Source: a virus (Duplodnaviria > Caudoviricetes). Taken from it: a stretch of 60,661 nucleotides of DNA. The stretch lies in the IMG/VR virus record IMGVR_UViG_3300027659_000037, positions 1 to 60,661 of that record; one strand, written 5' to 3'. Positions 2,797 through 49,762 of the stretch are shown here, one piece after another. The translations under genes and the position numbers were made by a program. The notes below the pieces were generated by a model. It worked only from the letters and a program-made list of their open reading frames with translations. It was not told the DNA's origin and did no database searches. The stretch's first letter is position 1; every line of letters begins with the position of its first letter.

Positions 2797-3221
2797 ACAA
2801 ACCTACCTTTTGTTTTGCCTTTGACAGCGCAGCCGTCAGCACGGGCTGAAGCCGTTCCCCCTTTAGCCATGCCTTTACCGGAAATGATTTCACCCATTCC
2901 AGCACGAGAAGGAGTTTTATCGTCTTTTTTATCCCCAGAGTCATCACTGACGGCGGTTTTTATACCCGCTGCGGCAGCACCAGCACCTGCTGCACGAACA
3001 CCTGTTCGGGCCGCTGCTCGATCTTGGGCATCTTCAGTCACCTTCTTAGCGCTACCACGTAAGTGTGAGGTGTCTTGATTGATTTTTTTGAGATCGCCCA
3101 TTGTGCTGGAACTACCTCTCAAAGAAGGCATCTTGCTGTACTTGGTTCCGCTGATGCTTGCGCCTGCGCCGCCGCCCTCAAGTATTTGGTCATCGGTTGG
3201 TTTCTTGCCAATTTTTGCCAT
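2793..3221 (-). CDS. Tagged small virion-cluster protein (DDQILEGGG leader and C-terminal RADGCAVKGKTKG tag)
   Basis: GAGG RBS; shared terminal motifs. Confidence 0.8.
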   Translation of the reverse strand: MAKIGKKPTDDQILEGGGAGASISGTKYSKMPSLRGSSSTMGDLKKINQDTSHLRGSAKKVTEDAQDRAAARTGVRAAGAGAAAAGIKTAVSDDSGDKKDDKTPSRAGMGEIISGKGMAKGGTASARADGCAVKGKTKGRFV

Positions 3222-3228
3222 GATTACC

Positions 3229-3483
3229 TCAACACTTCCATCTTGCTAAAGAAGCCGCCTTGCGGGTAGGCTTGCCTTTTTCATCTTTCATCGGGCCGGG
3301 CATACCAGACATACGTGCACAGAAAGAATCCTTGCGCTTGCCGCCTCCGGGCTGTGGAGCCTTCAAGTTGCTTCCTGTTGCTGCGTTGTACTTGGCACGG
3401 CCTTTGGCAGTCAAGCCCGCCCCCTTGGAAGCGGGTAGTTTTTCACCACGACCAATTGCAAGGGAGGGAGTTTTTTTAGCCAT
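3229..3483 (-). CDS. Small basic phage protein (DUF6321-like)
   Basis: GLTAKGRAKYN...NLKAPQP...SFCARMSG...LARWKC motif. Confidence 0.6.
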   Translation of the reverse strand: MAKKTPSLAIGRGEKLPASKGAGLTAKGRAKYNAATGSNLKAPQPGGGKRKDSFCARMSGMPGPMKDEKGKPTRKAASLARWKC

Positions 3484-3778
3484 AGAACACCGAGAGGCTG
3501 GTTAACGAGCCAACGCTCAGCGTCAAATACAAACCTGTACTTGCCAAAATACCTTCGCCGGGGACGAGGACATACGTAGAGTTGGCTACGGTTTGACTTG
3601 TAATGTCCATTGTGAACAAAACCTCGCCCGAGGCGCTACCGTCACGAATTTCAAATGTGCACGCGGTACTTATAGCAGGTGTAACAACAAAACCTTTGAG
3701 TCGTGTACGACCTGCGTAATACGACCCAGCGGTACTGCGGTGCGCTGACTTAACGTCTGTTTGCATTGCCATAATCAA
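3476..3778 (-). CDS. Putative virion structural protein
   Basis: Beta-rich, 100 aa; AGGAG RBS suggests the start is Met3 (about 3772); downstream of MCP. Confidence 0.55.
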   Translation of the reverse strand: MIMAMQTDVKSAHRSTAGSYYAGRTRLKGFVVTPAISTACTFEIRDGSASGEVLFTMDITSQTVANSTYVLVPGEGILASTGLYLTLSVGSLTSLSVFYG

Positions 3779-3815
3779 TCTCCTTTAGAACAGGGGCCAA
3801 AGCCCCTTAGATCAA

Positions 3816-4307
3816 TTATTGTTGAGTGGCGGTTGGGTTTGCAGAACCGTCAGAGTCTTTGACGACATACGTCAAGGTCAATATGCCAGCACCAGATGTG
3901 GCGGTGACGTTGGCCTGTGTAAACGTGATGATTGCGTCTGACGTACCTACGTTGTTACACAGCACAGCGGCGGCGGCAGAGTTATTGCCCAGCAAAATAT
4001 TTACGATGCCAGTGTTTGTAAATACGCTTCCGTTTGCGGCTGTATTAATTGCAACAGCATTAGCGAAGAGTGCGTATGTAGGAGTTGTTGTTGCATATGC
4101 AACAGTGGTGTTAAACGCCGCAGAAAGAATCTGTGAGCCTGCGGGAATCGTGAAGGCAACCGTAGCTGCTGTAATGTCCGTGTACAAAATGTCTTTAGAC
4201 TGCGATACGACTGTCGCGCCCAAATTGCGGATAGTGCCAGCGGTAGAGCCGGTGGTGTTTTTAACAGTGCCCAACAACCAAGGGCCAAGGTGAGTTGCGA
4301 ATCCCAT
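3816..4307 (-). CDS. Putative capsid-associated structural protein
   Basis: Thr/Ala-rich beta protein directly after MCP; GGAG RBS. Confidence 0.55.
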   Translation of the reverse strand: MGFATHLGPWLLGTVKNTTGSTAGTIRNLGATVVSQSKDILYTDITAATVAFTIPAGSQILSAAFNTTVAYATTTPTYALFANAVAINTAANGSVFTNTGIVNILLGNNSAAAAVLCNNVGTSDAIITFTQANVTATSGAGILTLTYVVKDSDGSANPTATQQ

Positions 4308-27483: not shown

Positions 27484-27509
27484 AGGCATGGTTCGCCATG
27501 CCTTTTTTT
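27484..27509 (+). terminator. Rho-independent terminator
   Basis: AGGCATGG-TTCG-CCATGCCT plus T run. Confidence 0.9.
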
Positions 27510-27558
27510 GACACTTTTGAAAACGTTATTTGATGCCAGTTATTTAAGGAGAGCAACG

Positions 27559-32112: not shown

Positions 32113-32507
32113 ACGAAACATGGAAACATGAAATAGACAAGGTCTATATGTCTGACGTAATTTGCTTGGAAAAAGAAACTGTTGAGAAAATAGAAGATGG
32201 ACACAGGATGGGCGCTATCTTTAGCAGAAACCCTAGTGAAGGTTCAGTGGTGTTTCATTCCGAGAGTGTTGTTAAAGATTTGAAGTGGGAAGTGACGCAA
32301 AAGGATACGGAAATATACAGACTCAAAGCAGAGCAAGATGAGATTTATGGGTTGCTTGGGTCAGCACATCTTGAACTGCGACAGAACCTTGAGTACGGAT
32401 TCAACCGCAACACAATCAAGTCAACGCTTATCAGCATAGGTCGATACGCACCCAAGCTGAAAGCAAAGATGGATGAGTTGCAAGCCAAGATGGGGGACAA
32501 GCTATGA
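32109..32507 (+). CDS. Hypothetical protein
   Basis: Coupled ORF with coiled-coil. Confidence 0.6.
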   Translation: MNETWKHEIDKVYMSDVICLEKETVEKIEDGHRMGAIFSRNPSEGSVVFHSESVVKDLKWEVTQKDTEIYRLKAEQDEIYGLLGSAHLELRQNLEYGFNRNTIKSTLISIGRYAPKLKAKMDELQAKMGDKL

Positions 32508-32965
32508 CTGAGTTCAACGACACCGAGCGTATGAGTAGCGTCAAGCAAGAAGCGGTGAGGGCGGCAGTAAACATAAAAGAAGAGTTGACCAAGCTCATTG
32601 CCGACAGCTATGACCAAGGGGTTAAAGACGCATTGGAAGTAGCTCGCAATGCAGCCATCGAAGAAGTGGCACAGCACATTGAAAAGATGCGAGTCTTTGG
32701 CAATGACACGATCAGTAGTTTTGCAATCTATATAAGGGAAATGAAGAAATGCCCTGAGCATGAGCAATCAATTTTGAATTTGGAGTTGAGCGCCCGCGCA
32801 ACAAATGTTTTGAGAGCAGAAAATATTCAAACGATTGGGCAACTGATTGGGCGTTTAAAAGACTGTGACTACTATCTTTCTAAACTGTGTAACTGCGGCA
32901 AAGTCACTGAACACGAGATCAAAAACGCTCTTAAAGAACGTGGACTTTCATGGGGACAGACATGA
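32504..32965 (+). CDS. RNA polymerase alpha-subunit CTD-like domain protein
   Basis: SILNLELSARATNVLRAENIQTIGQL...LSKLCNCGKVTEHEIKNALKERGL matches the RpoA CTD pattern. Confidence 0.8.
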   Translation: MTEFNDTERMSSVKQEAVRAAVNIKEELTKLIADSYDQGVKDALEVARNAAIEEVAQHIEKMRVFGNDTISSFAIYIREMKKCPEHEQSILNLELSARATNVLRAENIQTIGQLIGRLKDCDYYLSKLCNCGKVTEHEIKNALKERGLSWGQT

Positions 32966-33615
32966 GTTATACATGGTCGTTTTCATCATACAAGCAGTAC
33001 GTCAACTGCCCCAAGCAGTACCAAGAAATCAAGGTGCTGAAGCGTTTCTTTGTGAAGCCGACGCAGGAGATGACCTACGGCAACGAGGTACACAAAGCGC
33101 TTGAGCATTACGTCAAGGACGGCACTCCCCTTGCCAAGAACTACGAACGATTCAAAGCGCTGATGGACACACTGATGGAGATTGATGGTGAGAAACATCC
33201 AGAACTGAGGATGGCTCTTGACCGTGACGGCAACGCTAGCGAGTACGGCAAAGGATACTGGGTGCGGGGTATCGTGGACTTGCTCATTTTGGACGACGAC
33301 CTTGCGCACATCCTTGACTACAAGACAGGCAGTAGCAAGTACCCTGATACAAAACAGTTAAAGCTGATGGCACTGATGACCTTTGCTAAGTTTCCTCAGA
33401 TCATGCGAGTCAAGGCTGGCTTGCTGTTCGTGATGCACGATGGGTTCGTCACTGAGGAGTACACCCGAGATCAGATTCCTGCACTGTGGGATGCGTTCAA
33501 GTCTGATCTTGCACGGATGGATGGTTCATACGAAAATGATGTCTGGAACCCAAACCCTACACCCCTGTGCGGCTGGTGTCCTGTGACAACCTGTGACTTT
33601 CATAAAGGACGCTGA
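32962..33615 (+). CDS. PD-(D/E)XK Cas4/RecB-like exonuclease
   Basis: WSFSS..CPKQY, GNEVH, RGIVD, DYKTG, QLKL, CGWCP..C. Confidence 0.85.
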   Translation: MSYTWSFSSYKQYVNCPKQYQEIKVLKRFFVKPTQEMTYGNEVHKALEHYVKDGTPLAKNYERFKALMDTLMEIDGEKHPELRMALDRDGNASEYGKGYWVRGIVDLLILDDDLAHILDYKTGSSKYPDTKQLKLMALMTFAKFPQIMRVKAGLLFVMHDGFVTEEYTRDQIPALWDAFKSDLARMDGSYENDVWNPNPTPLCGWCPVTTCDFHKGR

Positions 33616-33617
33616 CC

Positions 33618-33872
33618 ATGCCGTACGAGAACAAACCAAGACCATACAAAAAAGAATATGAACAACAAAAAGACAGAGGCGAGTTACCTAACCGGATGGA
33701 GCGCCAACGCGCCCGAAGAAAACTTGATGCTGAGGGTGTTAGCCGCAAGGGAAAAGATGTTGCGCACGTCAAGGCTTTATCTAAAGGTGGATCAAACAAA
33801 GACGGAGTCCGACTTGAAGCACCAAGCAAGAACCGATCGTTTAAGAGAAAGTCAGACGGTTCAATGAAGTAA
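33618..33872 (+). CDS. Small HNH-like protein
   Basis: GKDVAHVKALSKGGSN...NRS. Confidence 0.65.
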   Translation: MPYENKPRPYKKEYEQQKDRGELPNRMERQRARRKLDAEGVSRKGKDVAHVKALSKGGSNKDGVRLEAPSKNRSFKRKSDGSMK

Positions 33873-33874
33873 TA

Positions 33875-34013
33875 GTCATCGCGTTAAGGCATGAGTGTGC
33901 GGTGACGGGGGTTTAGTTAACCCCCTCTTAACCATGTCAGTCAAGCGGTGTTTTCGAGGTCTCTCTCTCCTTTCGCACGTCGGGCTTGACCGATTGACCC
34001 CCGTAAGGGGTCA
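33875..34013 (+). ncRNA. Candidate structured ncRNA (four stems, two pseudoknot pairings)
   Basis: Fully intergenic; see the matching finding for pairings. Confidence 0.5.
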
Positions 34014-34037
34014 CAGTTTCATTCAGTAAAGGGTAGT

Positions 34038-35594
34038 ATGCAAGTCATTGATAACACGGCGGTACACATGAAAATACCGTCAAACGAACTTGGTCACTTG
34101 GTCGGGCACATTGAAAGGTGCGAAGTACTAAGAGACGACGGCAAGTTTGCTGAAGTAATGGTGTATTGGGGCATTAAAGAGATGCAACGCCTCATCAAAG
34201 TCTATGGTGATGCGCCGTCCCCAATGTTCAACGAATACGACTGGCCTGGGATGTATACGCCATTCGTCCACCAGAAAACTACTGCCTCATACCTTGCCTT
34301 ACGACAACGGGCCTTTTGCTTTAATGAAGCAGGCACAGGCAAGACATCGTCCGTCATCTGGGCGGCAGACTACCTGATAAATCAAGGACTGGTCAAACGG
34401 ATACTGGTCATCTGCCCACTGTCAATTATGTACTCCGCATGGCAGGCCGACATCTTTAAAACAGCAATGCACCGCACTGTCGGCGTGGCGTACGGCGATG
34501 CGAACAGACGCAAGAAAATCATCAACGGGGAGTACGAATTCGTCATCATTAACTTCGATGGAGTGGGAACAGTTTCCGAAGAAATAGGTAAAGTAGGGTT
34601 TGACCTAATTGTGATTGACGAAGCGAACGCATATAAAACGGTAACTACAAAACGTTGGAAGACCTTGGCAAAACTAATCACTCCCGCAACCCGTCTTTGG
34701 ATGATGACAGGCACACCCGCCTCACAGTCTCCGATGGATGCGTTTGGCTTGGCGAAGCTGGTTAACCCTATCGGTGTGCCCAAGTACATGACATCGTGGC
34801 GCGACAAAGTAATGCACCAAGTAACGCCGTTCAAGTGGGTTCCCAAGGCGACTTCACAGCAGGATGTGTTCAACGCATTGCAACCTGCCATCCGGTTTGA
34901 GAAGGCTCAGTGTCTTGACTTGCCTATGGTCATGTATCAGACCAGAGAGATACCGTTGTCCCCGCAAGCCGCCAAGTATTACAAAGTGCTGAGAGATCAA
35001 CTGCTCATCGAGGCAGTGGGGGAAACAGTCAGTGCTGTCAATGCGGCGGCGAAGCTCACCAAGCTGTTGCAGATTGCTGGTGGCGCTGTCTACACAGACG
35101 ACAGAGAAGTCATTGAGTTTGATGTATCCCCAAGGCTTAACGCCTTGATGGAGGTGATTGATGAGACCAATAACAAGGTCATTGTGTTCGTACCGTACAC
35201 CCACACCATCAAGTTGGTGGCACGGCATTTAAATCAACAAGGAGTAATAAATGAAATCATAGAAGGAAGCGTCAGTGCAAAACTGCGGTCTGACATTATC
35301 AACAAGTTTCAAACCGCAAAGGATCCACGTGTTCTGGTCATTCAGCCACAAGCCGCCTCGCACGGGGTAACGCTGACTGCCGCTGACACAGTGGTGTTTT
35401 GGTCGCCTGTCATGAGCGTAGAAACGTACATACAGTGCATTGCCCGTATCGACCGAGTTGGGCAGGTCAACAGTATGACGGTGGTACATCTACAGGGCGC
35501 GGAGGTTGAGCGCAGGGTGTACCAGATGCTTCAAGGTAAGGTGGATTCACATGAGAAGTTGGTCGATCTTTACAAACAGGAGTTAGGGATATGA
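34038..35594 (+). CDS. SNF2-family (SF2) helicase
   Basis: EAGTGKT, IVIDEA, MTGTP, HGVTLT, QCIARIDRVGQ. Confidence 0.9.
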   Translation: MQVIDNTAVHMKIPSNELGHLVGHIERCEVLRDDGKFAEVMVYWGIKEMQRLIKVYGDAPSPMFNEYDWPGMYTPFVHQKTTASYLALRQRAFCFNEAGTGKTSSVIWAADYLINQGLVKRILVICPLSIMYSAWQADIFKTAMHRTVGVAYGDANRRKKIINGEYEFVIINFDGVGTVSEEIGKVGFDLIVIDEANAYKTVTTKRWKTLAKLITPATRLWMMTGTPASQSPMDAFGLAKLVNPIGVPKYMTSWRDKVMHQVTPFKWVPKATSQQDVFNALQPAIRFEKAQCLDLPMVMYQTREIPLSPQAAKYYKVLRDQLLIEAVGETVSAVNAAAKLTKLLQIAGGAVYTDDREVIEFDVSPRLNALMEVIDETNNKVIVFVPYTHTIKLVARHLNQQGVINEIIEGSVSAKLRSDIINKFQTAKDPRVLVIQPQAASHGVTLTAADTVVFWSPVMSVETYIQCIARIDRVGQVNSMTVVHLQGAEVERRVYQMLQGKVDSHEKLVDLYKQELGI

Positions 35595-40112: not shown

Positions 40113-40296
40113 ACCAGATTGGGTATTTCCGTTTGAAGTTATGGAGGTAGGGGACAGTTTCTTTGTCCCCACCCTTCGCTTTGCTGAGATGATCTACTCG
40201 ATTGACAGCGGTGCAAAACGTGCCGGTATTAGGGTCAAGTCCTACATCGTCGTCAAAGAAGATCACATCGGAGTGCGCACGTGGCGCATCCGTTAA
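40102..40296 (+). CDS. Small putative DNA-binding protein
   Basis: FPFEVMEVGDSFFVP...GVRTWRI motif. Confidence 0.7.
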   Translation: MVSEPDWVFPFEVMEVGDSFFVPTLRFAEMIYSIDSGAKRAGIRVKSYIVVKEDHIGVRTWRIR

Positions 40297-43200
40297 GGCT
40301 TGACTCCATACGCTTTAAACATTGCGATCATTTCATGTTTAATCATGTTCTCTTGCAGGATAGTCACTTTCAACATTTTATCTCGTATCTTAGGGCTTAG
40401 ACTTCCATCTAAACGGATCTGATTTGCCTCAGCCCTGAGTCTATTAAGTTCAACAACCTGTTGTTTGTAGATTTCTACAATATCCCTGTGCATGGGATTT
40501 TGCATGTCGTACTTTATTCCTGCAACTGGCGCGGCGGTATCAAATGTATTTAATTTTTGTTGGATTTCTTTTATTTGTTTTTCAACTGAACTAAATTCTC
40601 GAGAGTCCACATTGGACTTTGACCCAAAGAAAGATCCAATCAAAGGTAAATCAGTTTTAGGGTTGAACTCTTTTGCACCTTTGCTTAAATTAAACATACC
40701 GTAGATTAACTCGCCAACCTTGCCAAGACCGTCAAGATAGCTGTTTGTAAAAAAGTACAGCGTGTTAGGGCTAACATCAACTCCACCCACGCCAAGTCCC
40801 GGCACGTCTGATTTAAACAATTCTTTGGCAACGGTCTTGTATATCTCAGGAATCTTGTCCCCGCCTGTGTACGCATCGCCCATGCGTCGCGCTGTTGCGC
40901 TGTTGATATCTTGCCCAATGCCGTTTTTGTTCATTAGAAATTCGGTCAGGGGTCGAATCACAGTAGGCATCAATGAGTCAACGGCAAAAGCCAAAGGTGC
41001 TTCAGATGCGGGAATCTTAGAAATAGGAAGCGGCACAAACGAGTCTGCCATGATGGACATCACAATACTACTCATGCCATCTTTAAGGGAAGTCTGCCCA
41101 CGAGTCATGCCAGCAACTTGTGCACCCATCGCTGCAAATGCTCCCAAACCAAATCCCCACGGCACTTGAAAGATTACACCTCTGCCCAAGCCTAGACTCT
41201 CTGAAACACTGTCAGGAATATGAAACCGAGCGTTGCGAGTCCATTGCTGCATGTTGTCAGTCTTGACTGTGTTGCGCCCAAACTCATCGTCAGGAGCCAT
41301 CATCTCTGCCATCATGTACAAAAGGTACCCCATGCCAGACAAGGCAGTAATCATGATCCGTGCATTGCGTTGCTTCTCCGCGTAGGCGGTACGGAACTTA
41401 GCCACAGCCTCAGGGTCACTTTGAATGTTGGCAGGCAAACCAGCCACCACGTCATCAATGTTACGGAACGCAGGCGCAACGGCTTCAATGGAGCGTTTGG
41501 CACTGATTGCTGAGGGGCGGATAAACATGTACAACGCACCCATGCCACGGCTGTACGTACCCTTCTGCTCAAAGTTGGTCATCTCTTTTGCATAGGTCGC
41601 CGCTTGAACTGCCGCCGCTTTTTCAGCCGCAGACATCTGACCGTTGGGGCCGGGCGTTGTTGAGAGGCCGTTCGCTATTTGTTCTTTTAGGGCACGTTCT
41701 TTCTCTTGAGCGTACACCGCTGCGCGGCTGGTAAATTCAAACATGTTGTTCCATGTATCTACCAGCAGGTTGAACTGATCTAGTTTGGTGATCGTACGTG
41801 ATTTGCCAGTAGATTCAGCCAGCTTTTCCATATTGGTTTTCAAAGAGAAGCTTTGTATGTAAGTAGTCTTTGCACCGTTTTCAAGGTACTCAACCATATT
41901 CTTTACGTACGCATCCTCTTTCACCATCTTAGCAAGCAGTGCTTTGCTTTCGGGATCGCTTCGATCATGTAAGGAAGCAACTTTCCACGCCTTGGCTATA
42001 CCGTTATTGGCAACAATGTTTGCCGCCATTGATGTAGCGTACTGAAGTGCGGCAGCAGGGCCACGATCTGCACCAATGTTGAATGAATTAAACAACGCGT
42101 CGCGTATAAAGTTCATCGGCGCAAAGTTGTAGTTGTACCGTGTATGCAGCGAGCCAAAGAAGCCAGTTACTCGATTGGCAGTGTCAAGCAATGTATTGGT
42201 ATCTTGGTAGGTATACCGCAAAGAGTTCAGCAGCTTCTGATTGGTGATCTTGAGAATATCTAGTGAGCCATCTTTGTTGTAGTGAAAGATGTAATCCTCA
42301 CCCTTGTACTTCTTCATGTCGATGTTGTTGCGTTCCAAAAACTCAAAGTGCTTGATGTCCCCCGGAATAATGCCAGCTTCCATTGCATTCTTGATCGACT
42401 GTGTATAGTGTTTACGCCCCGCACGCCCCGCCGCGCGGATAGCATCGGACAAGCTCTGCAAAATTGGGTTATCGGAGACACTGAACCGACCGTCCATAGC
42501 AGCTTGGTATTCCTGCAACTCACGTCCGTTGCGGCGGCTATCAAAATCAAAACTGTCGTCAGCTTGTTTCTTGCCACGATCTTTGCCTTTGAACGGCATG
42601 TAGTTTTTAAACCCGTACAACCCAACAAGGTTTGATACAGGTGTAGACCAATAGTTGCCTTCTCTATTCAGTTCTGTCGTAGTCTTATGCAACTCACGCA
42701 TGGTCGTATAAATTGCTTGAATAGCGTTGTACTCGGCAGGGTTGTTCTGCTGCATATCAGCCAACTGCTGCTCCCGCAAGGCAACTTCAGACTGCTCAAG
42801 TCCCAACACATTGAATGCGCCGTCGTTGATATCTATGGGCATACCTTGCTTAGCTTTGCCGGGAGGCGCGGGTCTATTAAGACGTTCACGCACCTTGTCA
42901 GAAACGCGAGGGCCGTCTCCGTACGCATCAGCGTAGGTATTGGCAAGGTTGGTCAACTCAGTTCGCAAAGCTTTAAGTTGGACTTGAGTCAGTTCTGTTT
43001 TGTGGATCAAACCCGGCTTGTTGGTACGCTCGTCCCCAACAATCTGCACGCGACGTTCAGCAGGGCTGATCTGCACATTATTTTGAGTAAGCAGTTTTTG
43101 TTGACTCAAGGGCACAGTCAGTATAAATTTAACGAGCCGACGCTCAGGCTCGTGCATAGCCTCAGCAATTCTGTGCAGGCGGTTTAGCGCGGGTTTCAGG

Positions 43201-46200
43201 TCTTGCCCAATCAGCGCTGCATATTCTGTTACTTGGCTTTGCAGTTTGTTTTCTGTATCTTGCACACGGTTGATGTACTCGTTCTCACCAAGCGCTGCGC
43301 TGGTGACCGCCCACTCATAGAAGTTGGTGAATTTACCGTTTAAGTCCCGTGAAATCTTACCTGCAAGGTTGTATGTATCGAACAAGTATTTTGCTTCAGT
43401 GCGTCTGTCCACAAGCCATGTGGCAATCCGTCTCCAGCCTTCAGCTGTTGTAAACAACTTCTTTACAAAGTTTTTGCCATCCGGCGCGTCATTGCGATCG
43501 GGGTTGTAAGCAGAGTTGTCACCGTCAATACCATTAGCTGGCCCACTAGCTGGCAACGGTTTCATACTGATCGTACCTTTTTCAGGTACAGCCAGTATGT
43601 CTTCAAATGCAGCTTCAATTTCCAGCCGGTAATTGATGGGAGCTTCCATATCAAGCTTGCCACGCTTGAACAATTCTTTTGTGACGCCAAGCAGTTCAGC
43701 CACCTTCAGCTTAAACTCAGACCACATGGACTTCTTCTCAGGCAAAATTGTTTCTGTCTCTCCTACACCTTGCCGCAACTTAGCCAACTCCAATTGGAAA
43801 GACTTGTTGGTCATAGAGTAGCTGACAAACTCATACAAGTTTTTGTATGCCTCAGGAAACTTCTTGGCAAAAAACTGTCTACTGTCGTCCATTATGCTTT
43901 GCAGTTGTTCCGCTGCTTCAAGCTGCGCCATTGTTAACCCGACACCGTTCTTAGTTAAGAATATATTTAATACCTTAATAGTGGCGGCGTGTACAAGCTC
44001 GTGCATCAACACAGCTTCAGTCGCGCCAAATGGGGTTACAAAGATCGTGTCCGAAGCTGGGTCATAGATTGCAACGTCCTTGCCGGGCAGCTTGTCAACC
44101 ATTTGAATCTGGGTGTTCAGCTTCATGCTGAAAATTGCTTGGGCAATGTTTCGGAAGAACTTATTGTTTGCAGAAGTGCGCAGGAACTGCAACACGCCTT
44201 GGATGTTGTTACCCTTTATATGGGCAAGTACAGCATCAGGCACAAGCCCCTGAGTAGAAGTTCGCTGGCTGGCTTGATTGAGCTTGTCGTACTTCTCTTT
44301 GTTCTGTTTATGTTCTTGCTCAATCTTGTTCTGCACTTCAGCAATACGCAACGCAACGTTACGTTTCTGGTCATTGGTCATCCGTCTTTCTTTTTGAAGC
44401 AGATGAACTCCAAGATTCGCAAAACCTACGTCCTGCTGTAGCCCAGCATTACTAATAATTTGTTGCAGGTATACCTGCTTGTCACCGTCATTAAGTTCGC
44501 CCCATGCAGGAAACTCCACCCCAAACAACTTGCTGCTGACGGCGCGGTTCTGCTCATAGGCGTTTACAAAGCGTTGCTGCTCTGTAGTGAGATTTAATTT
44601 ATCAGCGCTTTTCTTTTTGCGATACGCATCAAGTGCCGCCGCCGCATTGTTGTGTTCTTCAATCGTGTTTTGCCTGATGTTGTCAAAGTAGACATCTTTC
44701 TCGTCAGGCCTTAAATCATTCCACGCAGGGATGAGAACACCTTCCTCACGTTTGGCATCACGGGTTAGGTCATACTCCTCACGCATCTCAGCCGTGATTT
44801 CATATCTACCTTCCTTAGACTCTTCACCTTCTTTTAGAACTTCATATCTTGGTATGGTTCTTGGTTTGCCTTCTTCGTCTACCTTAGACTCAGCCAAATT
44901 CTTCTGGTAATCTTCGTCTGCTGTCTGTTCATACTTGTCAGCCAACTCCATTGCAGCTTGGAGGTTTACCTCGCTACTTTGTTCAGTAGCTACATAACCC
45001 GGAGTTGTGTCAATGCGTTCAGGCTTGCTTGTTGTAACTAATGGAGCGGGCTGTATTGCCTTTCCTGCACCAGTGTCTGTAGCAGGTGTTCCAGTATCAA
45101 CCACTCTGTCTGATTGAGTTGTAGTAGTTCCTCCGGGGGTGACGACAGCACCGGGTTTGCCAGCCACAGTAGCGCCTGCTCCACCTGCACTTGCGATAGG
45201 TTCATTAACATTTTGACCCTTTTCTTTATCTATTTCTTTCCCTGTATGCAAAAACCATAGGGCTTGTTTTACTCCGCCTATTTCTTTTTCTAATTCTTCA
45301 ATTGCTGCTACTGCGTCCCTAACTTTTTGTGAACTGTTACGGCGCAACGTTGGCGCAAAGCCTAAAGCCTCGCGTTTCTTTTCAAGTTCTTCTAATTGAG
45401 CAGTTCTTTCTTGGATGAGCCGATCAACAGTTTCTTCTCTACTCTCAGTAGGAGGCGCAGTCTCATCCGGTTTGACCTCTGTCGTTGCAGGAGTAGTCTC
45501 AATCGGTTTGGTTGCCTGCCCAATAGGCACAGCGGGGCTGAGCATTGCCTCAGTTTCTGCATCAACCTTGGGCGCAGTTCCCGTAGTTTCAGTTTTAGTT
45601 TGGGTCTGCTGAATCTGCTGCTGTTCTTTAAGCGCTTCTGCTTTTTCTTTTTCAAACCTAGCGGTGTAGCCTTCACGCCCACCGATCGCTGCGCCCATAC
45701 CAGCACCAGCTAAACCTTCTAAAGTGCCTTGACTGACAACACCACGAAATGTGGGTACATCAAAGCCTTCACGTTGCAACGCCAAATTTTGTGCGAGTTG
45801 TTCTTGCCCGCCCTGTGGAAACTCGGTTGCAAGCTCTTTACCTGCTGTAATTGCGCCTTGTTTAATAGCCCCGCGTTCAGCAGCTTTTTTGGTCTCTTGT
45901 TCCGCTACCGCTTTAACCGCAGCTCTGGTGGCTTCCTTGCCTGCTGTCTGTGTGGCGGCGGTAGTGGCAGCTTGTTCTGCTGTGGTTCGCCCAATAATAT
46001 CTTTTGCCAACTGCCGAGCAAGGATAGGCTCTGCACCTGTTCTGGCCCCAACTGCGCCAATACCTGCGCCAAGTAGGATCTGATCTAAGTTCTTACCGTC
46101 GTATTCTTGCGCCTTAACCGCAACAGCTTCAATCTGCTCAGGCGTCATCTTGGTTTTTTCAGTCAATACCTGTTTGGTAGCGTCATATATTGCACCCTTA

Positions 46201-46799
46201 ACAGTGCCCGCGCCCATGATTGCGCCTGTACCCAGCGTTAAACCTGCACCTACCAACGGCGCACCACCAGTAAATAAAGTAACCAAGCCAGCGGCAATAG
46301 CAGGAGCCGCAGTTCCAAGCGAATTGGAAATAAGATCAACAGGCGCAACAGACATTGCCTTAACACCCGCCGCTACTTGATCCAGAATACCTTTGTCCTC
46401 CGCCTCTTGCATGATGCGGGCAATTTCTTTGCTGTCGTTTTTGGACTGGGCACTGTACAAAGCAGCTATTTCGTTTTCTACACCACGAAGGCTTTTAGAC
46501 ACAGCATTGTTTGCGCCAAACGCATCAGCAATCATGCGCACACCTGTAACAACGCCAGCCCCCACCTTAAGCGGCACATCGGCAACCTGACGGAAAACGC
46601 TTTGGTCTTGTGGTGTTGCTTCAGGTGGTTTAACAGGTGCAGCAGCTTTAATAGTTAAAGGCATCCACTCGTTTTTTATCAGTCCAAACTTTTCACCTGT
46701 ATCAGGATTGCTCGCTGTTTTAGAAAAAGAAACCCACTCGTTGTTAACTAACGCAAAGCGTTCTCCAGTATCAGGATTGGTGGCGGTTTGGAGTGCCAT
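40293..46799 (-). CDS. Large polyvalent internal virion (ejection) protein with zincin motif and LPD38-like C-terminus
   Basis: 2168 aa; N-terminal NPDTGE repeats, Gly-zipper hydrophobic helices, MHELVHAAT (HExxH), C-terminal VPWGFG...RPLTEFLMNKN..G...DVSPNTL. Confidence 0.7.
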   Translation of the reverse strand: MALQTATNPDTGERFALVNNEWVSFSKTASNPDTGEKFGLIKNEWMPLTIKAAAPVKPPEATPQDQSVFRQVADVPLKVGAGVVTGVRMIADAFGANNAVSKSLRGVENEIAALYSAQSKNDSKEIARIMQEAEDKGILDQVAAGVKAMSVAPVDLISNSLGTAAPAIAAGLVTLFTGGAPLVGAGLTLGTGAIMGAGTVKGAIYDATKQVLTEKTKMTPEQIEAVAVKAQEYDGKNLDQILLGAGIGAVGARTGAEPILARQLAKDIIGRTTAEQAATTAATQTAGKEATRAAVKAVAEQETKKAAERGAIKQGAITAGKELATEFPQGGQEQLAQNLALQREGFDVPTFRGVVSQGTLEGLAGAGMGAAIGGREGYTARFEKEKAEALKEQQQIQQTQTKTETTGTAPKVDAETEAMLSPAVPIGQATKPIETTPATTEVKPDETAPPTESREETVDRLIQERTAQLEELEKKREALGFAPTLRRNSSQKVRDAVAAIEELEKEIGGVKQALWFLHTGKEIDKEKGQNVNEPIASAGGAGATVAGKPGAVVTPGGTTTTQSDRVVDTGTPATDTGAGKAIQPAPLVTTSKPERIDTTPGYVATEQSSEVNLQAAMELADKYEQTADEDYQKNLAESKVDEEGKPRTIPRYEVLKEGEESKEGRYEITAEMREEYDLTRDAKREEGVLIPAWNDLRPDEKDVYFDNIRQNTIEEHNNAAAALDAYRKKKSADKLNLTTEQQRFVNAYEQNRAVSSKLFGVEFPAWGELNDGDKQVYLQQIISNAGLQQDVGFANLGVHLLQKERRMTNDQKRNVALRIAEVQNKIEQEHKQNKEKYDKLNQASQRTSTQGLVPDAVLAHIKGNNIQGVLQFLRTSANNKFFRNIAQAIFSMKLNTQIQMVDKLPGKDVAIYDPASDTIFVTPFGATEAVLMHELVHAATIKVLNIFLTKNGVGLTMAQLEAAEQLQSIMDDSRQFFAKKFPEAYKNLYEFVSYSMTNKSFQLELAKLRQGVGETETILPEKKSMWSEFKLKVAELLGVTKELFKRGKLDMEAPINYRLEIEAAFEDILAVPEKGTISMKPLPASGPANGIDGDNSAYNPDRNDAPDGKNFVKKLFTTAEGWRRIATWLVDRRTEAKYLFDTYNLAGKISRDLNGKFTNFYEWAVTSAALGENEYINRVQDTENKLQSQVTEYAALIGQDLKPALNRLHRIAEAMHEPERRLVKFILTVPLSQQKLLTQNNVQISPAERRVQIVGDERTNKPGLIHKTELTQVQLKALRTELTNLANTYADAYGDGPRVSDKVRERLNRPAPPGKAKQGMPIDINDGAFNVLGLEQSEVALREQQLADMQQNNPAEYNAIQAIYTTMRELHKTTTELNREGNYWSTPVSNLVGLYGFKNYMPFKGKDRGKKQADDSFDFDSRRNGRELQEYQAAMDGRFSVSDNPILQSLSDAIRAAGRAGRKHYTQSIKNAMEAGIIPGDIKHFEFLERNNIDMKKYKGEDYIFHYNKDGSLDILKITNQKLLNSLRYTYQDTNTLLDTANRVTGFFGSLHTRYNYNFAPMNFIRDALFNSFNIGADRGPAAALQYATSMAANIVANNGIAKAWKVASLHDRSDPESKALLAKMVKEDAYVKNMVEYLENGAKTTYIQSFSLKTNMEKLAESTGKSRTITKLDQFNLLVDTWNNMFEFTSRAAVYAQEKERALKEQIANGLSTTPGPNGQMSAAEKAAAVQAATYAKEMTNFEQKGTYSRGMGALYMFIRPSAISAKRSIEAVAPAFRNIDDVVAGLPANIQSDPEAVAKFRTAYAEKQRNARIMITALSGMGYLLYMMAEMMAPDDEFGRNTVKTDNMQQWTRNARFHIPDSVSESLGLGRGVIFQVPWGFGLGAFAAMGAQVAGMTRGQTSLKDGMSSIVMSIMADSFVPLPISKIPASEAPLAFAVDSLMPTVIRPLTEFLMNKNGIGQDINSATARRMGDAYTGGDKIPEIYKTVAKELFKSDVPGLGVGGVDVSPNTLYFFTNSYLDGLGKVGELIYGMFNLSKGAKEFNPKTDLPLIGSFFGSKSNVDSREFSSVEKQIKEIQQKLNTFDTAAPVAGIKYDMQNPMHRDIVEIYKQQVVELNRLRAEANQIRLDGSLSPKIRDKMLKVTILQENMIKHEMIAMFKAYGVKP

Positions 46800-46801
46800 G
46801 T

Positions 46802-49762
46802 TTAATCCACTTTAGCGCCGGGTGGAGGGGGTGGAGCGTCGCCGCCAGTATTAGTTGGTTTTGGTTTCATGCCTGCTTTTTCCCTGACAAAATTAACTGT
46901 ATCCTGCGCATCTTTACGCATACGGTCAAAATTTCTTTCTCTTATCGCTAACTGTTCTTTGGCAGCTTTTATAAGCGGTAGAGTATCTGGAGTTTCCGCC
47001 ATGCCAGCCCGATTAACGAGCGTAGCATATGCCGGTTTTGACATTTCTACTTCGATTGTTTTTTCTACGTTGGCTTGTAATTGTGCAGCAGCATTTAGCC
47101 GCGCTATCATGTTAGTTTCATTTCTTCCTTCTTTGTCTTCTTTTGCAGCCGCCGCACGTATTCTTTCTCCTGCTAACTGAGTCTCATTGACAGAATTTTG
47201 AAGCTCTCTACGCATTTTCTCAATAGAGATATCGTGTTCTCTTGCCCGCGTTGACCTAACTTCTTCTACTTTGAGCGCCTTCGTTTCAGCAGCATTTTCT
47301 TTTTGGGTCTGCATCTGGTATTCAGACAGCTTTAAGAAAAGCGTTTGCATCTTTTCAGCGTCTTTTTCTTTGACTGCCGCAGCGGCGTCAATTTCGCCTA
47401 TTGTCTCGAGACGAGTTGCTTCATCAAGACTGGCAATAGACTTGTTAATTTCCATGCGAACCTTCTTGGCTTCTTTTTCGCCCTCGACAATCTCAGGTAT
47501 TCGCTCCCTGACTGCAATCAAACCAGCAGTCAATGTTTCGCCGGGAGTAGAACCCCAACGTGCAAAGAACGCAGCAGCTTGCAAATACCTATTGCGCCTT
47601 GCCTCATCTTCAGCATTAGCGCGTTCTTTCATCAGATTGGCGCGCGCCTCTGGGTCGCGTTGTGCTACGCCCGCTGCCTCATAAGCAGCTTGTTTTTCTC
47701 TCATAATGTCCGGTATAGAACGATCCGCCCTAGTCTGTATATCGGAAATTTGTGACTTCAATACATCAGGTATGTTGGGGTCAGCCTGCGTTGCTTCTAA
47801 TGCAGTAAGCGGGGCTTTTAGAACAGGAGGAGGCGCAACTGCTGGCGCAGCTTGAGCAATGCCCAATGGCACATTGCTTACATCTTTAGTAACTTCACCT
47901 GTCATTGAACGTCGATGCAATATTTCTGAAGGGGTAAGCTCTGGTTTTTCTTTAACAACACTTTGATTGTTTTCGTCAGTTGAGCTTGCAAACGCAATGA
48001 TGCCACCGCCAGCTAATCTAGGTTGTTGAGGTTGTTTCTCCAATTGACGTTCACGCAGAATGCGTTGCGCCATACGTTTGATTGATGGGCTAGATGATTC
48101 TTTAAGTTGTTTTTGTAGACTCGACTCATCCATGTTGTAGAGGTCGCTCTCAACTTCGCCGCCTACGTTGTAAGACATGATGCCGCCTTTAGCGTATTCC
48201 TTGATGACGCCACCTTTTGCTTTGAACGCGTTGTACAGAGAAGCACCTGCACCTGCCGCGCCAATGGCTTGAGTGATTGGGTTGGGAGCCGCCACGTACT
48301 GCTGTGTGGTTTGAGCTTGCATGGGCAAGCCACGGATCATGTTGGACATTGTGCCCAACTGCATGAGTGGGTACTGCTGCGCGTTAGAGTAATCTTGAAT
48401 AGCCTGATTAACCTTCTGCTGCTCCAAGGCTTGTTGTTGTGCGCCAGTTGTATTCTGAAGACTGTAGATGCCTTGTTGTGCCGCAAGCTGTTGTTGACCC
48501 AAATTGGCTAATTGATTAGCCGCGCCCAAGGCAGCTTGATTTGCTTGCATACCATACCCAGCGCCAAATTGACGGGATTGTTCTTCAGCAGCTTGTGCGG
48601 CCTGCCCGTACTGTGCGCCAAGACTAGCGGCCTGTAATCCTTGTCCAGCGCCATATTGACGGGACTGCTCTGCGGCTTGTTGTGCTTGCTGAAAGGCCTG
48701 CTGATTAGCCAACTGCGACTGCATGTTTTGGCCTGCGCCAAGTTGTTGTATACCAAGCAACGCAGAAAGATTCTGTGTCCCGGTCTGAATGCCAGCCTGT
48801 TGATTGGCTTGTTGTGCCTGCAAACGAGCTTGCTGCTCAGCATTGAATTGTTGTTGGGCTTGACCATAAGCAGCTTGTTGTCCCGTGGCTTGGATGTCAC
48901 CCATTTGCTGACCGAGATTTCGTTCACGTTCCGCACGCACGATGGCATCACGACTACCGCCAAAAGCACCTGCGCCTACAGCTTGAGCTTGCTGCTGTGT
49001 GCCTTGAATGCCAGATTGGCGTTGCGCCTCACGTTTTTGGATGTCCACCACGTTCTGCATGTAGGGCGACATATACGCTTCTGCGGAACCGGGCTGCGCA
49101 AAACTTTGAGTACGTACTCTTTCAGCTGGCCCCATTTGATAGTTTTGTAAGTCTGGTGCTTGCGCTTGCATCATTGAAAACTGACCGGGCTGGTATGTGC
49201 CGGGGTTTTGAAATTGATTACCAAAATTACCAGCTTGATAGTTGGCATTTTGTAAATTCTGCATTGATTGTTGAGTAGCATCAGTTGCCTGACCATACTG
49301 ACCCGGTAATTGCATGTTGGCAATACCTTGTTGCGCACCGGTCTGCATCGGTTGAAAGCCAGCTATGGATTTACCGGGATCGTAGGAAGTCTGGTTACCC
49401 TGTGCATCGTATGTTCCACCATAAGATCTGTATGGTTGGAAGCCAGTTATGTTGAAAGTATCCGAGCCAGGTATTAATCTTCGTTCGGTTCCAGTTTGTA
49501 CTTGTTGTGTGCCACCACCCCTGCCGCCTGTGCTTTGCGTTGAATAGACAGGAACATCTTCATACTGAGGATTTGAACTTCCCTGAAACAATTGTTTCTG
49601 GGTTGCGCCCAGCATTGTCTCAACGTAAGGTTTTGCGTACTCAGGAATATTCGTTGAATACGTAGTGTTGGTGCTTTGTTGTGAACCGCCGCCGCCACCG
49701 CCGCCCATACCCATATACCCACTCAACGGAAGGAGTTTTCTTTTTGCATCGAGTAAATTCAT
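46802..49762 (-). CDS. Internal virion / DNA ejection protein
   Basis: GGGGGGGSQQSTNTT N-terminus, YMSPYMQNVVD, GAFGGSR, Gln-rich; coiled-coil C-terminal half. Confidence 0.7.
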   Translation of the reverse strand: MNLLDAKRKLLPLSGYMGMGGGGGGGSQQSTNTTYSTNIPEYAKPYVETMLGATQKQLFQGSSNPQYEDVPVYSTQSTGGRGGGTQQVQTGTERRLIPGSDTFNITGFQPYRSYGGTYDAQGNQTSYDPGKSIAGFQPMQTGAQQGIANMQLPGQYGQATDATQQSMQNLQNANYQAGNFGNQFQNPGTYQPGQFSMMQAQAPDLQNYQMGPAERVRTQSFAQPGSAEAYMSPYMQNVVDIQKREAQRQSGIQGTQQQAQAVGAGAFGGSRDAIVRAERERNLGQQMGDIQATGQQAAYGQAQQQFNAEQQARLQAQQANQQAGIQTGTQNLSALLGIQQLGAGQNMQSQLANQQAFQQAQQAAEQSRQYGAGQGLQAASLGAQYGQAAQAAEEQSRQFGAGYGMQANQAALGAANQLANLGQQQLAAQQGIYSLQNTTGAQQQALEQQKVNQAIQDYSNAQQYPLMQLGTMSNMIRGLPMQAQTTQQYVAAPNPITQAIGAAGAGASLYNAFKAKGGVIKEYAKGGIMSYNVGGEVESDLYNMDESSLQKQLKESSSPSIKRMAQRILRERQLEKQPQQPRLAGGGIIAFASSTDENNQSVVKEKPELTPSEILHRRSMTGEVTKDVSNVPLGIAQAAPAVAPPPVLKAPLTALEATQADPNIPDVLKSQISDIQTRADRSIPDIMREKQAAYEAAGVAQRDPEARANLMKERANAEDEARRNRYLQAAAFFARWGSTPGETLTAGLIAVRERIPEIVEGEKEAKKVRMEINKSIASLDEATRLETIGEIDAAAAVKEKDAEKMQTLFLKLSEYQMQTQKENAAETKALKVEEVRSTRAREHDISIEKMRRELQNSVNETQLAGERIRAAAAKEDKEGRNETNMIARLNAAAQLQANVEKTIEVEMSKPAYATLVNRAGMAETPDTLPLIKAAKEQLAIRERNFDRMRKDAQDTVNFVREKAGMKPKPTNTGGDAPPPPPGAKVD

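Follow-up and report, generated by a model that had tools for sequence, protein, structure and literature searches.

The question raised by this locus is what occupies the 165 bases between a small open reading frame (ORF) and an SNF2-family helicase gene in the virus record IMGVR_UViG_3300027659_000037. The window analyzed was the whole record, 60,661 bases long and 95% complete. Comparison of the gap with its relatives in other viral contigs indicates that it encodes a non-coding RNA of ~140 nt on the + strand, which folds with an H-type pseudoknot and is under strong selection. Judged from these alignments, the RNA is a divergent, rearranged member of a wider family around Proteo-phage-1 (Rfam RF03044), a motif catalogued and public since 2017. 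As a kind of RNA it is not new but varies a family already on record.

Using the helicase protein as query, 80 related loci were collected from viral contigs and the 200 bases before each helicase start were compared; the element recurred in many of them, and compensatory changes were visible. Thirty-two sequences formed alignment A1, from which a covariance model, R1, was built (151 positions, 30 pairs). Across the whole 60.7-kb record R1 gave a single match, at 33871-34018 (124.4 bits). A degenerate pattern of two core motifs identified at least 120 further viral-contig stretches, of which 80 were kept. R1 produced 77 matches in these 80 pattern-found loci plus the window (81 sources), and 33 matches, 32 of them full length and one confined to J3/4 and P4 (L009), in the 80 helicase-anchored loci. 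Two alignments were used for evaluating the fold: A2, the pattern-found set (69 distinct rows), and A3, the helicase-anchored set (32 distinct rows), whose selection was independent of the search pattern. Counts of loop, P4, CUCC, and promoter features were made over 94 distinct copies.

The predicted structure was strongly supported in both alignments. Over the whole structure, 81.8% of cells were paired in A2; column shuffles gave 60.6%, with 0 of 500 reaching the observed value, and slid partners gave 34-42%. In A3, too, none of 500 shuffles reached the observed value. A preliminary description of the window, all of whose listed strings were found where it placed them, had paired GCATG with CATGT; the alignments extended this helix to GGCAUG(33888-93)/CAUGUC(33933-38), which was 100% paired in the 69 rows of A2 and 96.2% paired in the 32 rows of A3, where four of six pairs had changed on both sides. 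Two A2 pairs switched in strict Watson-Crick fashion with zero mismatches (CG 36/UA 33 and GC 42/AU 27), while a third varied as UG 34/UA 26/CG 9. Since the search pattern had set only purine or pyrimidine at the switching positions, this Watson-Crick switching was not built in. An invariant G-U pair of the pseudoknot (69/69 A2 rows) places the RNA on the + strand.

The stems covaried as well. P1 was paired in 78.7% of A2 cells, with all nine pairs changed on both sides, and in 62.5% of A3 cells. The corresponding values were 66.8 and 73.7% for P2, 94.6 and 98.6% for P3a, 77.9 and 75.6% for P3b, and 86.5 and 78.0% for the P4 stem. All seven P3a pairs had changed on both sides in A3 (range 6-7 of 7 over A2 and A3). 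The four hairpins of the preliminary description thus persist across relatives, and RNAfold recovered each of them on the + strand (-53.7 kcal/mol). The folding energy was weak evidence alone, with a z of -1.98 against shuffles, and the reverse strand folded comparably (z -3.06). Two details changed. The P3 stem had been drawn as 33937-46/33984-93; its 33940-46/33984-90 portion covaries, and the outer two pairs (33937-38/33992-93) share bases with the pseudoknot and are invariant, so that no covariation signal is possible there. The proposed double pseudoknot was reduced to a single one, because the other helix, GTTAAG/CTTAAC (33883-88/33927-32), was paired in only 46.5% of A2 cells and was rejected. 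Covariation across homologous intergenic regions, the check proposed with that description, confirmed its fold in part. A leader peptide read from the invariant GUG in the P1 loop was also considered and rejected: its length varied between 1 and 50 codons, and no stop was shared. This ORF is not conserved, which argues that the element is non-coding.

Taken from 5' to 3', the predicted fold consists of P1, whose loop pairs with the strand behind an optional P2, followed by a long P3, whose apical loop is CU-rich, and by P4, which carries a GNRA cap (Table 1). The family core runs in the order P1, loop (A/G)UNAGG-YRY-GAGUG, P1', linker ending in AAC, CC-RYR-UC, AG, and P3. About 20 near-invariant unpaired bases surround the pseudoknot. 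P2 was absent in many relatives (e.g., L023, L056, and L141). A P4 loop of CGUAA or CGCAA (C-GUAA-G/C-GCAA-G) was present in 46 of the 94 distinct sequences, and a U-tract followed P4 in only 16. With so few U-tracts, P4 in most copies resembles a structural GNRA hairpin, and its interpretation as a general terminator was rejected. The exposed anti-Shine-Dalgarno-like loop noted in the preliminary description was borne out: CUCC occurred inside P3 in 61 of 94 sequences, compared with a mean of 14.0 and a maximum of 25 in 300 shuffles, so the CU-rich loop is a conserved feature. The downstream Shine-Dalgarno (SD) sequence and the purine-rich bases that are invariant in the loop (AAGG, GAG) are candidates for its pairing partner. 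J3/4 (ACUR) could pair with a YAGU before the SD in 27 of 33 sequences, as compared to ~22 by chance; this pairing was not counted as structure. The YAGU-AAGG-AGUAUG pattern is also present in relatives without the RNA and therefore belongs to the gene start region rather than the RNA module.

Table 1. Coordinates of the RNA, its parts, and the flanking genes in the 60,661-base window.
Feature	Positions	Strand	Description
Upstream ORF	33618..33872	+	Small basic 84-aa protein with arginine-rich stretch; from the ORF list; phrog_4590 only
Intergenic gap	33873-34037		165 bases, between the small ORF and the SNF2 helicase gene
P1 hairpin	33875..33906	+	Stem 33875-83/33898-906, including G33883-U33898; 14-nt loop UUAAGGCAUGAGUG at 33884-97
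Pseudoknot 5' strand	33888..33893	+	GGCAUG, within the P1 loop; pairs with 33933-38
P2 hairpin	33907..33925	+	GGGGGUU/AACCCCC (33907-13/33919-25); variable, optional
Linker	33926..33932	+	UCUUAAC with conserved AAC at its end (alignments); matches 'AAaAAC' of RF03044
Pseudoknot 3' strand	33933..33938	+	CAUGUC, then conserved AG; covariation in A2 and A3
P3	33940..33990	+	Outer helix 33940-46/33984-90; inner helix 33948-50/33976-78; 3'-side bulge GUCGG
P3 apical region	33961-73	+	Contains CUCUCUCUCCUUU
J3/4 and P4 hairpin	33991..34013	+	CGAUU, then UGACCCC-CGUAA-GGGGUCA; GUAA tetraloop closed by C-G
Spacer and ribosome-binding region	34014..34037	+	Belongs to the helicase gene; UCAGU at 34023-27, AAAGGG at 34028-33
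SNF2-family helicase gene	34038..35594	+	First gene behind the RNA; Pfam SNF2-rel_dom and Helicase_C; phrog_62

Two variations at the 3' end were seen among the relatives. In type II tails (L092, L104, L121, and ~18 further loci), P4 is followed by an extra hairpin of 8-11 bp and the ribosome-binding region is a conserved (C)AUUGGAGAA; in about half of these loci the next ORF encodes a small protein of 62-89 aa rather than the helicase. At L009, positions 2572-2593 hold only the J3/4 and P4 piece (CGACUAGCCCCCGUAAGGGGC), directly 3' of a stop codon, which resembles a deletion remnant of the RNA.

The preliminary description had called the RNA undescribed. Its core is that of RF03044, although the Rfam model misses the window copy. 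Proteo-phage-1 is typed in Rfam as 'Gene; sRNA', with a gathering score of 42 bits, an 82-position model, and no assigned function. Positions 33000-35000 of the window had no RF03044 match even at E ≤ 10 and so did not reach the gathering score, and 11 of 12 AT-rich relatives had none at E ≤ 1. Sub-threshold RF03044 matches were obtained in six of eight GC-rich loci (39.9, 36.5, 30.4, 29.4, 26.7, and 24.0 bits). In the cmscan alignments of two of these (L208 and L238), the second Rfam hairpin, 'cGcgG-AUaAGCCGGuuAGUG-CcgCg', fell on P1 and its loop, so that the loop consensus AUNAGG-YRY-GAGUG aligned to the RF03044 loop AUaAGCCGGuuAGUG; the Rfam tail 'AAaAACaCCGGCAGCC' aligned to the linker, the pseudoknot strand, and the CAG of the GC-rich relatives. 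The window carries the same core as UUAAGG-CAUG-AGUG ... UUAAC-CAUGUC-AGUC, and the pairing covaries. One further cmscan match, to DUF2815-RNA on the P4 and SD part of L208 (14.6 bits, E 5.2), was treated as chance.

The two families were joined by intermediates. A pattern drawn from the RF03044 consensus found at least 120 viral-contig stretches, of which 80 were kept; among 20 of these loci scanned, 16 passed the RF03044 gathering score (60-86 bits). R1 matched 19 of the 80 RF03044-pattern loci at E < 0.1, some at full length. L285 was matched at full length by R1 (27.6 bits, against 71.7 bits with the Rfam model), while L251 and L274 gave partial R1 matches to model positions 63-145 (P3, J3/4, and P4) directly behind the Rfam match. 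The intermediates L285, L274, and L251 were recognized by both models, with 60-72 bits for RF03044 and 24-32 bits for R1. R1 did not match at the RNA of Pseudomonas phages phiAH14a and Solano, and the two models are mutually blind at the extremes. The shared intermediates and the R1 matches to the 3' domain point to families that share both the pseudoknot core and a 3' domain lying outside the Rfam model. The link to Rfam was thus made through relatives, the window gap itself having no Rfam match at E ≤ 10.

Both types have a hairpin loop of the form AUNAG-[4-6 nt]-(N)AGUG, then an A-rich linker with AAC at its end, the 3' strand that pairs with the loop, and then CAG(C/U). Behind the core stand the P3 hairpin and a 'CGA/GGACA + capped hairpin' module, which R1 recognizes directly after bona fide copies, and both types are set in phages or prophages at the head of an operon. 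They differ in their hairpins. In RF03044 a 5' hairpin, interrupted by an internal loop and capped by a GNRA (guaa) tetraloop, stands ahead of the pseudoknot hairpin. The window type lacks it: no such hairpin was seen ahead of P1, where the preceding 45 nt are the end of the upstream ORF. The window type instead has its GNRA hairpin, P4, on the 3' side, and an optional P2 inserted in the linker. The pseudoknot is GGCAUG/CAUGUC in the window and (G)CCGG/CCGG(C) in the family. Finally, the window type stands before a helicase, in the replication modules of phages from freshwater, whereas RF03044 precedes lysis genes in lambdoid, Pseudomonas-type phages.

Bona fide RF03044 copies were examined at 11 loci. 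Genes upstream of them included NinG and families at the lambdoid Q place (phrog_3412, 3373, and 5086), the latter without a match in Pfam or NCBIfam; genes downstream included holin, spanin, HslV-like peptidase, terminase, and portal. Certified copies were present in two cultured Pseudomonas phages, phiAH14a (L371, KU708004.1; 82.1 bits) and Solano (L372, OR683411.1; 63.8 bits). In phiAH14a the RNA has NinG/p54 on one side and the late genes on the other. The order in Solano is upstream terminator, RNA, terminator, an unannotated holin-like ORF, endolysin, and terminase. Among 18 certified copies, a terminator-like hairpin occurred 71-221 nt downstream in ten and ≤80 nt upstream in ten. The late leader of phage lambda has the layout PR'-6S-tR', and by analogy the bona fide copies resemble it in map position and layout, standing after nin-region genes and before holin, lysis, and terminase genes, with a short transcript and a terminator. 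The analogy has limits. The action of lambda Q depends on a DNA site and a sigma-dependent pause, and lambda 6S RNA is not known to have a conserved fold; in the Proteo-phage-1 family the RNA fold itself is under strong selection, and the 'Q-position' genes belong to uncharacterized families.

Some annotations at these loci deserve mention in their own right. The 'hypothetical protein' AH14a_p55 of phiAH14a (3263-3793, - strand) is antisense over the RNA (3499-3576 and its 3' domain) and is probably a mis-call. In Solano, the unannotated hydrophobic holin-like ORF (~3707-4040, + strand) starts ~35 nt past the RNA's terminator and extends to the endolysin gene. At L259, two tRNA genes (2862-3008) stand directly behind a certified RNA, replacing the usual 3' part and terminator.

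The genomic setting of window-type copies was summarized over 75 related loci. The upstream ORF was homologous to the small basic protein of the window in 58, the next ORF was the helicase in 50, and the next same-strand ORF started <100 nt downstream in 67. The identity of the next gene varied: it was the helicase, a Gp157-like gene, or a small ORF. The upstream gene had been taken for an HNH gene; it had no Pfam or NCBIfam match and belonged only to a phrog of unassigned function. A sigma-70-like promoter (9-11 of 12 matches) lay ≤50 nt upstream in 18 of the 94 distinct copies, compared with 7 of 274 control windows, and the placement of the -10 box often put the transcript start at P1. These results agree with the preliminary description of a leader-like structured RNA ahead of the helicase operon. 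In at least nine relatives without the RNA a promoter was seen, by eye, at the same junction, so the helicase heads a transcription unit in this phage group. In one subgroup (L141, L134, L137, L084, and L136), the RNA core is separated from the helicase SD by a strong terminator hairpin whose loop is CU-rich.

The window itself showed no clear promoter beside the RNA in consensus scans. It had no second copy of the RNA or repeated promoter-like motif, a 16-mer being present once and R1 matching once, and no tRNA or tmRNA was found. The helicase is followed there by a 139-aa gene, a Gp157-like relative. Weaker, core-only matches in GC-rich contigs were located downstream of an SNF2 helicase and ahead of a Gp157-like gene (L236 and L208), behind a terminase (L238), and behind a tape-measure gene (L206). 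A Gp157-like gene also follows the helicase in the window, indicating that the RNA occupies different junctions of one module. Metatranscriptomes from four runs were compared as contigs with positions 33300-34700; cover was patchy and came from relatives, so that uncovered parts are uninformative. One 195-nt contig (X22) spanned 33847-34032, that is, the RNA with little else; contigs reveal no ends, strand, or level, and with DNA carry-over possible this is at best a weak hint of transcription.

Other features of the window were noted at a distance. Two genes upstream of the RNA (32504-32965, + strand) is a gene for a 153-aa protein with an RNA polymerase alpha C-terminal domain (PF03118, E 1e-10; 41.6 bits, cut-off 23.8), so that an alpha-CTD-like protein is encoded near a putative transcription-control RNA. 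Within the 21-41 kb block, the + strand has a single strong intrinsic terminator, at 27484-27510, which reads AGGCATGG-TTCG-CCATGCCT followed by T7 and abuts a TTGACA; it is likely the boundary between two transcription units. Two very large ORFs on the - strand, 40293-46799 (2168 aa) and 46802-49762 (986 aa), had no PHROG match at E ≤ 1e-5.

Beyond viral contigs, the pattern found 41 stretches in genome contigs, about the number expected by chance, of which R1 supported 20 at E < 0.1. Strong matches came from a Methylophilales genome, Polynucleobacter rarus, P. kasalickyi, two Burkholderiaceae metagenome-assembled genomes (MAGs), and a Marinoscillum MAG. The copies in P. rarus, P. kasalickyi, and the two Burkholderiaceae/betaproteobacterial MAGs (L222, L207, L219, and L203; 59-74 bits) were syntenic and stood alone. 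All four end in P4 and UUUUU, and all flanking genes lie on the opposite strand, with an esterase-like gene on one side and a 105-aa ORF resembling an integrase N-terminus and a K+ channel gene on the other. Cultured phages, searched at the nucleotide level for the window region, gave no match. Nor was a credible R1 match obtained in the four cultured phages whose helicases are nearest (Rollin, RHph_TM3_14A, Xp15, and Effie), the best having 7.8 bits and an E of 0.245. RF03044 was not found in 151 sampled genomes of one class, a result uninformative on absence because the control genomes were silent too. The term 'Proteo-phage-1' did not occur in the literature searched, and the main text of PMC5737381 is silent on the motif. 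PMC10690425 lists 8,495 unnamed IMG/VR candidates, and the supplements of the two papers may already contain the motif or a consensus drawing.

What such an RNA does was weighed from its context. The reading that we favor, at a probability of roughly 35%, is that it is a cis-acting leader of the helicase transcription unit that governs terminator read-through. The nascent RNA would fold, and its compact pseudoknot domain would act on the transcription elongation complex, either alone, like the HK022 put RNA and EAR RNA, or with a conserved host factor. RNA polymerase would then pass terminators and continue into the long downstream operon; in the lambdoid relatives the same core would serve the late (lysis and packaging) operon. 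Action in cis on transcription is suggested because the RNA is made first in its transcription unit, because a terminator often follows it and must be passed to reach the genes, and because the RNA is indifferent to which gene follows. That the core is kept across phages of several phyla, despite differing neighbor proteins, suggests that its partner is a conserved host component, for example RNA polymerase.

The case for antitermination is one of context, namely the leader position and the terminators behind, and several observations weigh against the proposal. Most window-type copies have no clear terminator behind them, and 75 of 94 P4 hairpins lack a U-tract; the only nearby + strand terminator-like site found in the window by consensus scan was the weak P4; and 8 of the 18 bona fide copies had no terminator in a simple scan. 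The conserved CU-rich loop has no role in an antitermination model, Rfam types the family as an sRNA, and the Polynucleobacter/Burkholderiaceae copies, with no same-strand gene behind them, resemble independent sRNA genes. Nor is there likeness in fold or sequence to the precedent for such an RNA. According to PMC9378689, HK022 putL and putR are cis-acting antitermination RNAs that bind RNA polymerase and need no dedicated protein; put is ~70 nt long and comprises two stem-loops and a short triplex, without a pseudoknot; through the bifurcation where the stem-loops join, it binds the beta' zinc-binding domain. The window RNA, made of pseudoknot, P3, and P4, is not of this fold. What the two have in common is a place in the nascent leader of long operons, ahead of terminators, and, as proposed here, a manner of working.

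If the RNA is a leader, it might instead sense something, a possibility that we regard as rather doubtful. As a riboswitch or protein operator, the pseudoknot would bind a small molecule or a protein (e.g., the upstream basic protein or the helicase), and binding would decide between termination and read-through or would free or hide the ribosome-binding site, perhaps through pairing of the CU-rich loop with the SD. The many near-invariant unpaired bases around the pseudoknot, together with a GNRA hairpin available for docking, are typical of aptamers. Pseudoknotted riboswitch aptamers and the T4 gene 32 autoregulatory leader pseudoknot likewise combine a leader position with an H-type pseudoknot and conserved loop bases, and some copies here also have a terminator or ribosome-binding site behind. 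A promoter upstream and an ORF close behind, terminators directly following some copies, the frequent CUCC, the arginine-rich stretch of the upstream protein, and the possible J3/4-YAGU pairing would all suit a sensor. Against it, Rfam riboswitch families did not match the window gap at E ≤ 10, and the downstream genes (helicase, Gp157-like, holin, and terminase) have no common metabolism or function. No conserved alternative (antiterminator) pairing was seen, the first-gene SD of bona fide copies lies behind the terminator and far from the CU loop, the YAGU-SD pattern occurs without the RNA, and the neighboring proteins differ between subfamilies.

The stand-alone copies and the Rfam type bring in an independent, trans-acting RNA, either processed or made from its own promoter, whose CU-rich loop would pair with phage or host SD regions or whose core would sequester a host protein. 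We consider this unlikely. The syntenic copies in four Polynucleobacter/Burkholderiaceae genomes have their own terminator and compensatory changes, a further copy sits in the Methylophilales genome, terminators often bracket the bona fide copies, conservation extends to the CU-rich loop, and the X22 contig covers just the RNA, weak as that hint is. In 75 of 94 phage copies an own terminator is absent, and most phage copies lie 9-30 nt before a same-strand start codon. The invariant bases, moreover, are in the pseudoknot core, whereas the CU loop varies in sequence and position. Least probable, and quite improbable in our view, is a self-cleaving ribozyme or other processing or stability signal that would cut or protect the polycistronic transcript at a gene junction. 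Such a role would suit an element that separates cistrons, in many loci following immediately on a stop codon, and that has a compact pseudoknotted core and invariant unpaired bases; its occurrence is sporadic across phage groups and gene junctions, and small ribozymes are distributed in a similarly sporadic manner. No Rfam ribozyme family (hammerhead, HDV-like, twister, pistol, hatchet, and others) matched at E ≤ 10, the order of helices is unlike HDV-like and pistol folds (as judged by comparing the topology with their consensus), and promoter-proximal copies start at P1, leaving nothing upstream to remove. To our knowledge, no cleavage activity has been reported for Proteo-phage-1 since 2017.

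Returning to read-through in cis, a broader and more speculative claim, which we think unlikely, is that the extended Proteo-phage-1 family represents a new, widespread class of self-sufficient antitermination RNAs, in which a pseudoknotted leader would bind the host elongation complex and license read-through. No antitermination RNA of such a pseudoknotted kind was found described in a literature search. If true, read-through would be directed to late genes in lambdoid phages and to replication genes here, and the family would be a second solution beside HK022 put, structurally unrelated to it, in phages of several bacterial phyla.

Overall, the Proteo-phage-1 family is much larger than the Rfam model detects, with hundreds of copies in freshwater phage contigs and prophage copies in several phyla. 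New here are the pseudoknot established by covariation, a 3' domain that is conserved yet lies beyond the Rfam model, the large RNA subfamily of freshwater phages that this model fails to detect, and the reading of the RNA as an operon head, which would be a late-gene leader in lambdoid phages and the leader of a helicase unit in the window. An orphan motif thereby becomes a testable hypothesis on how phages may time their late or replication genes without a recognizable Q or N protein, and phiAH14a and Solano are cultured phages in which that hypothesis can be tested.

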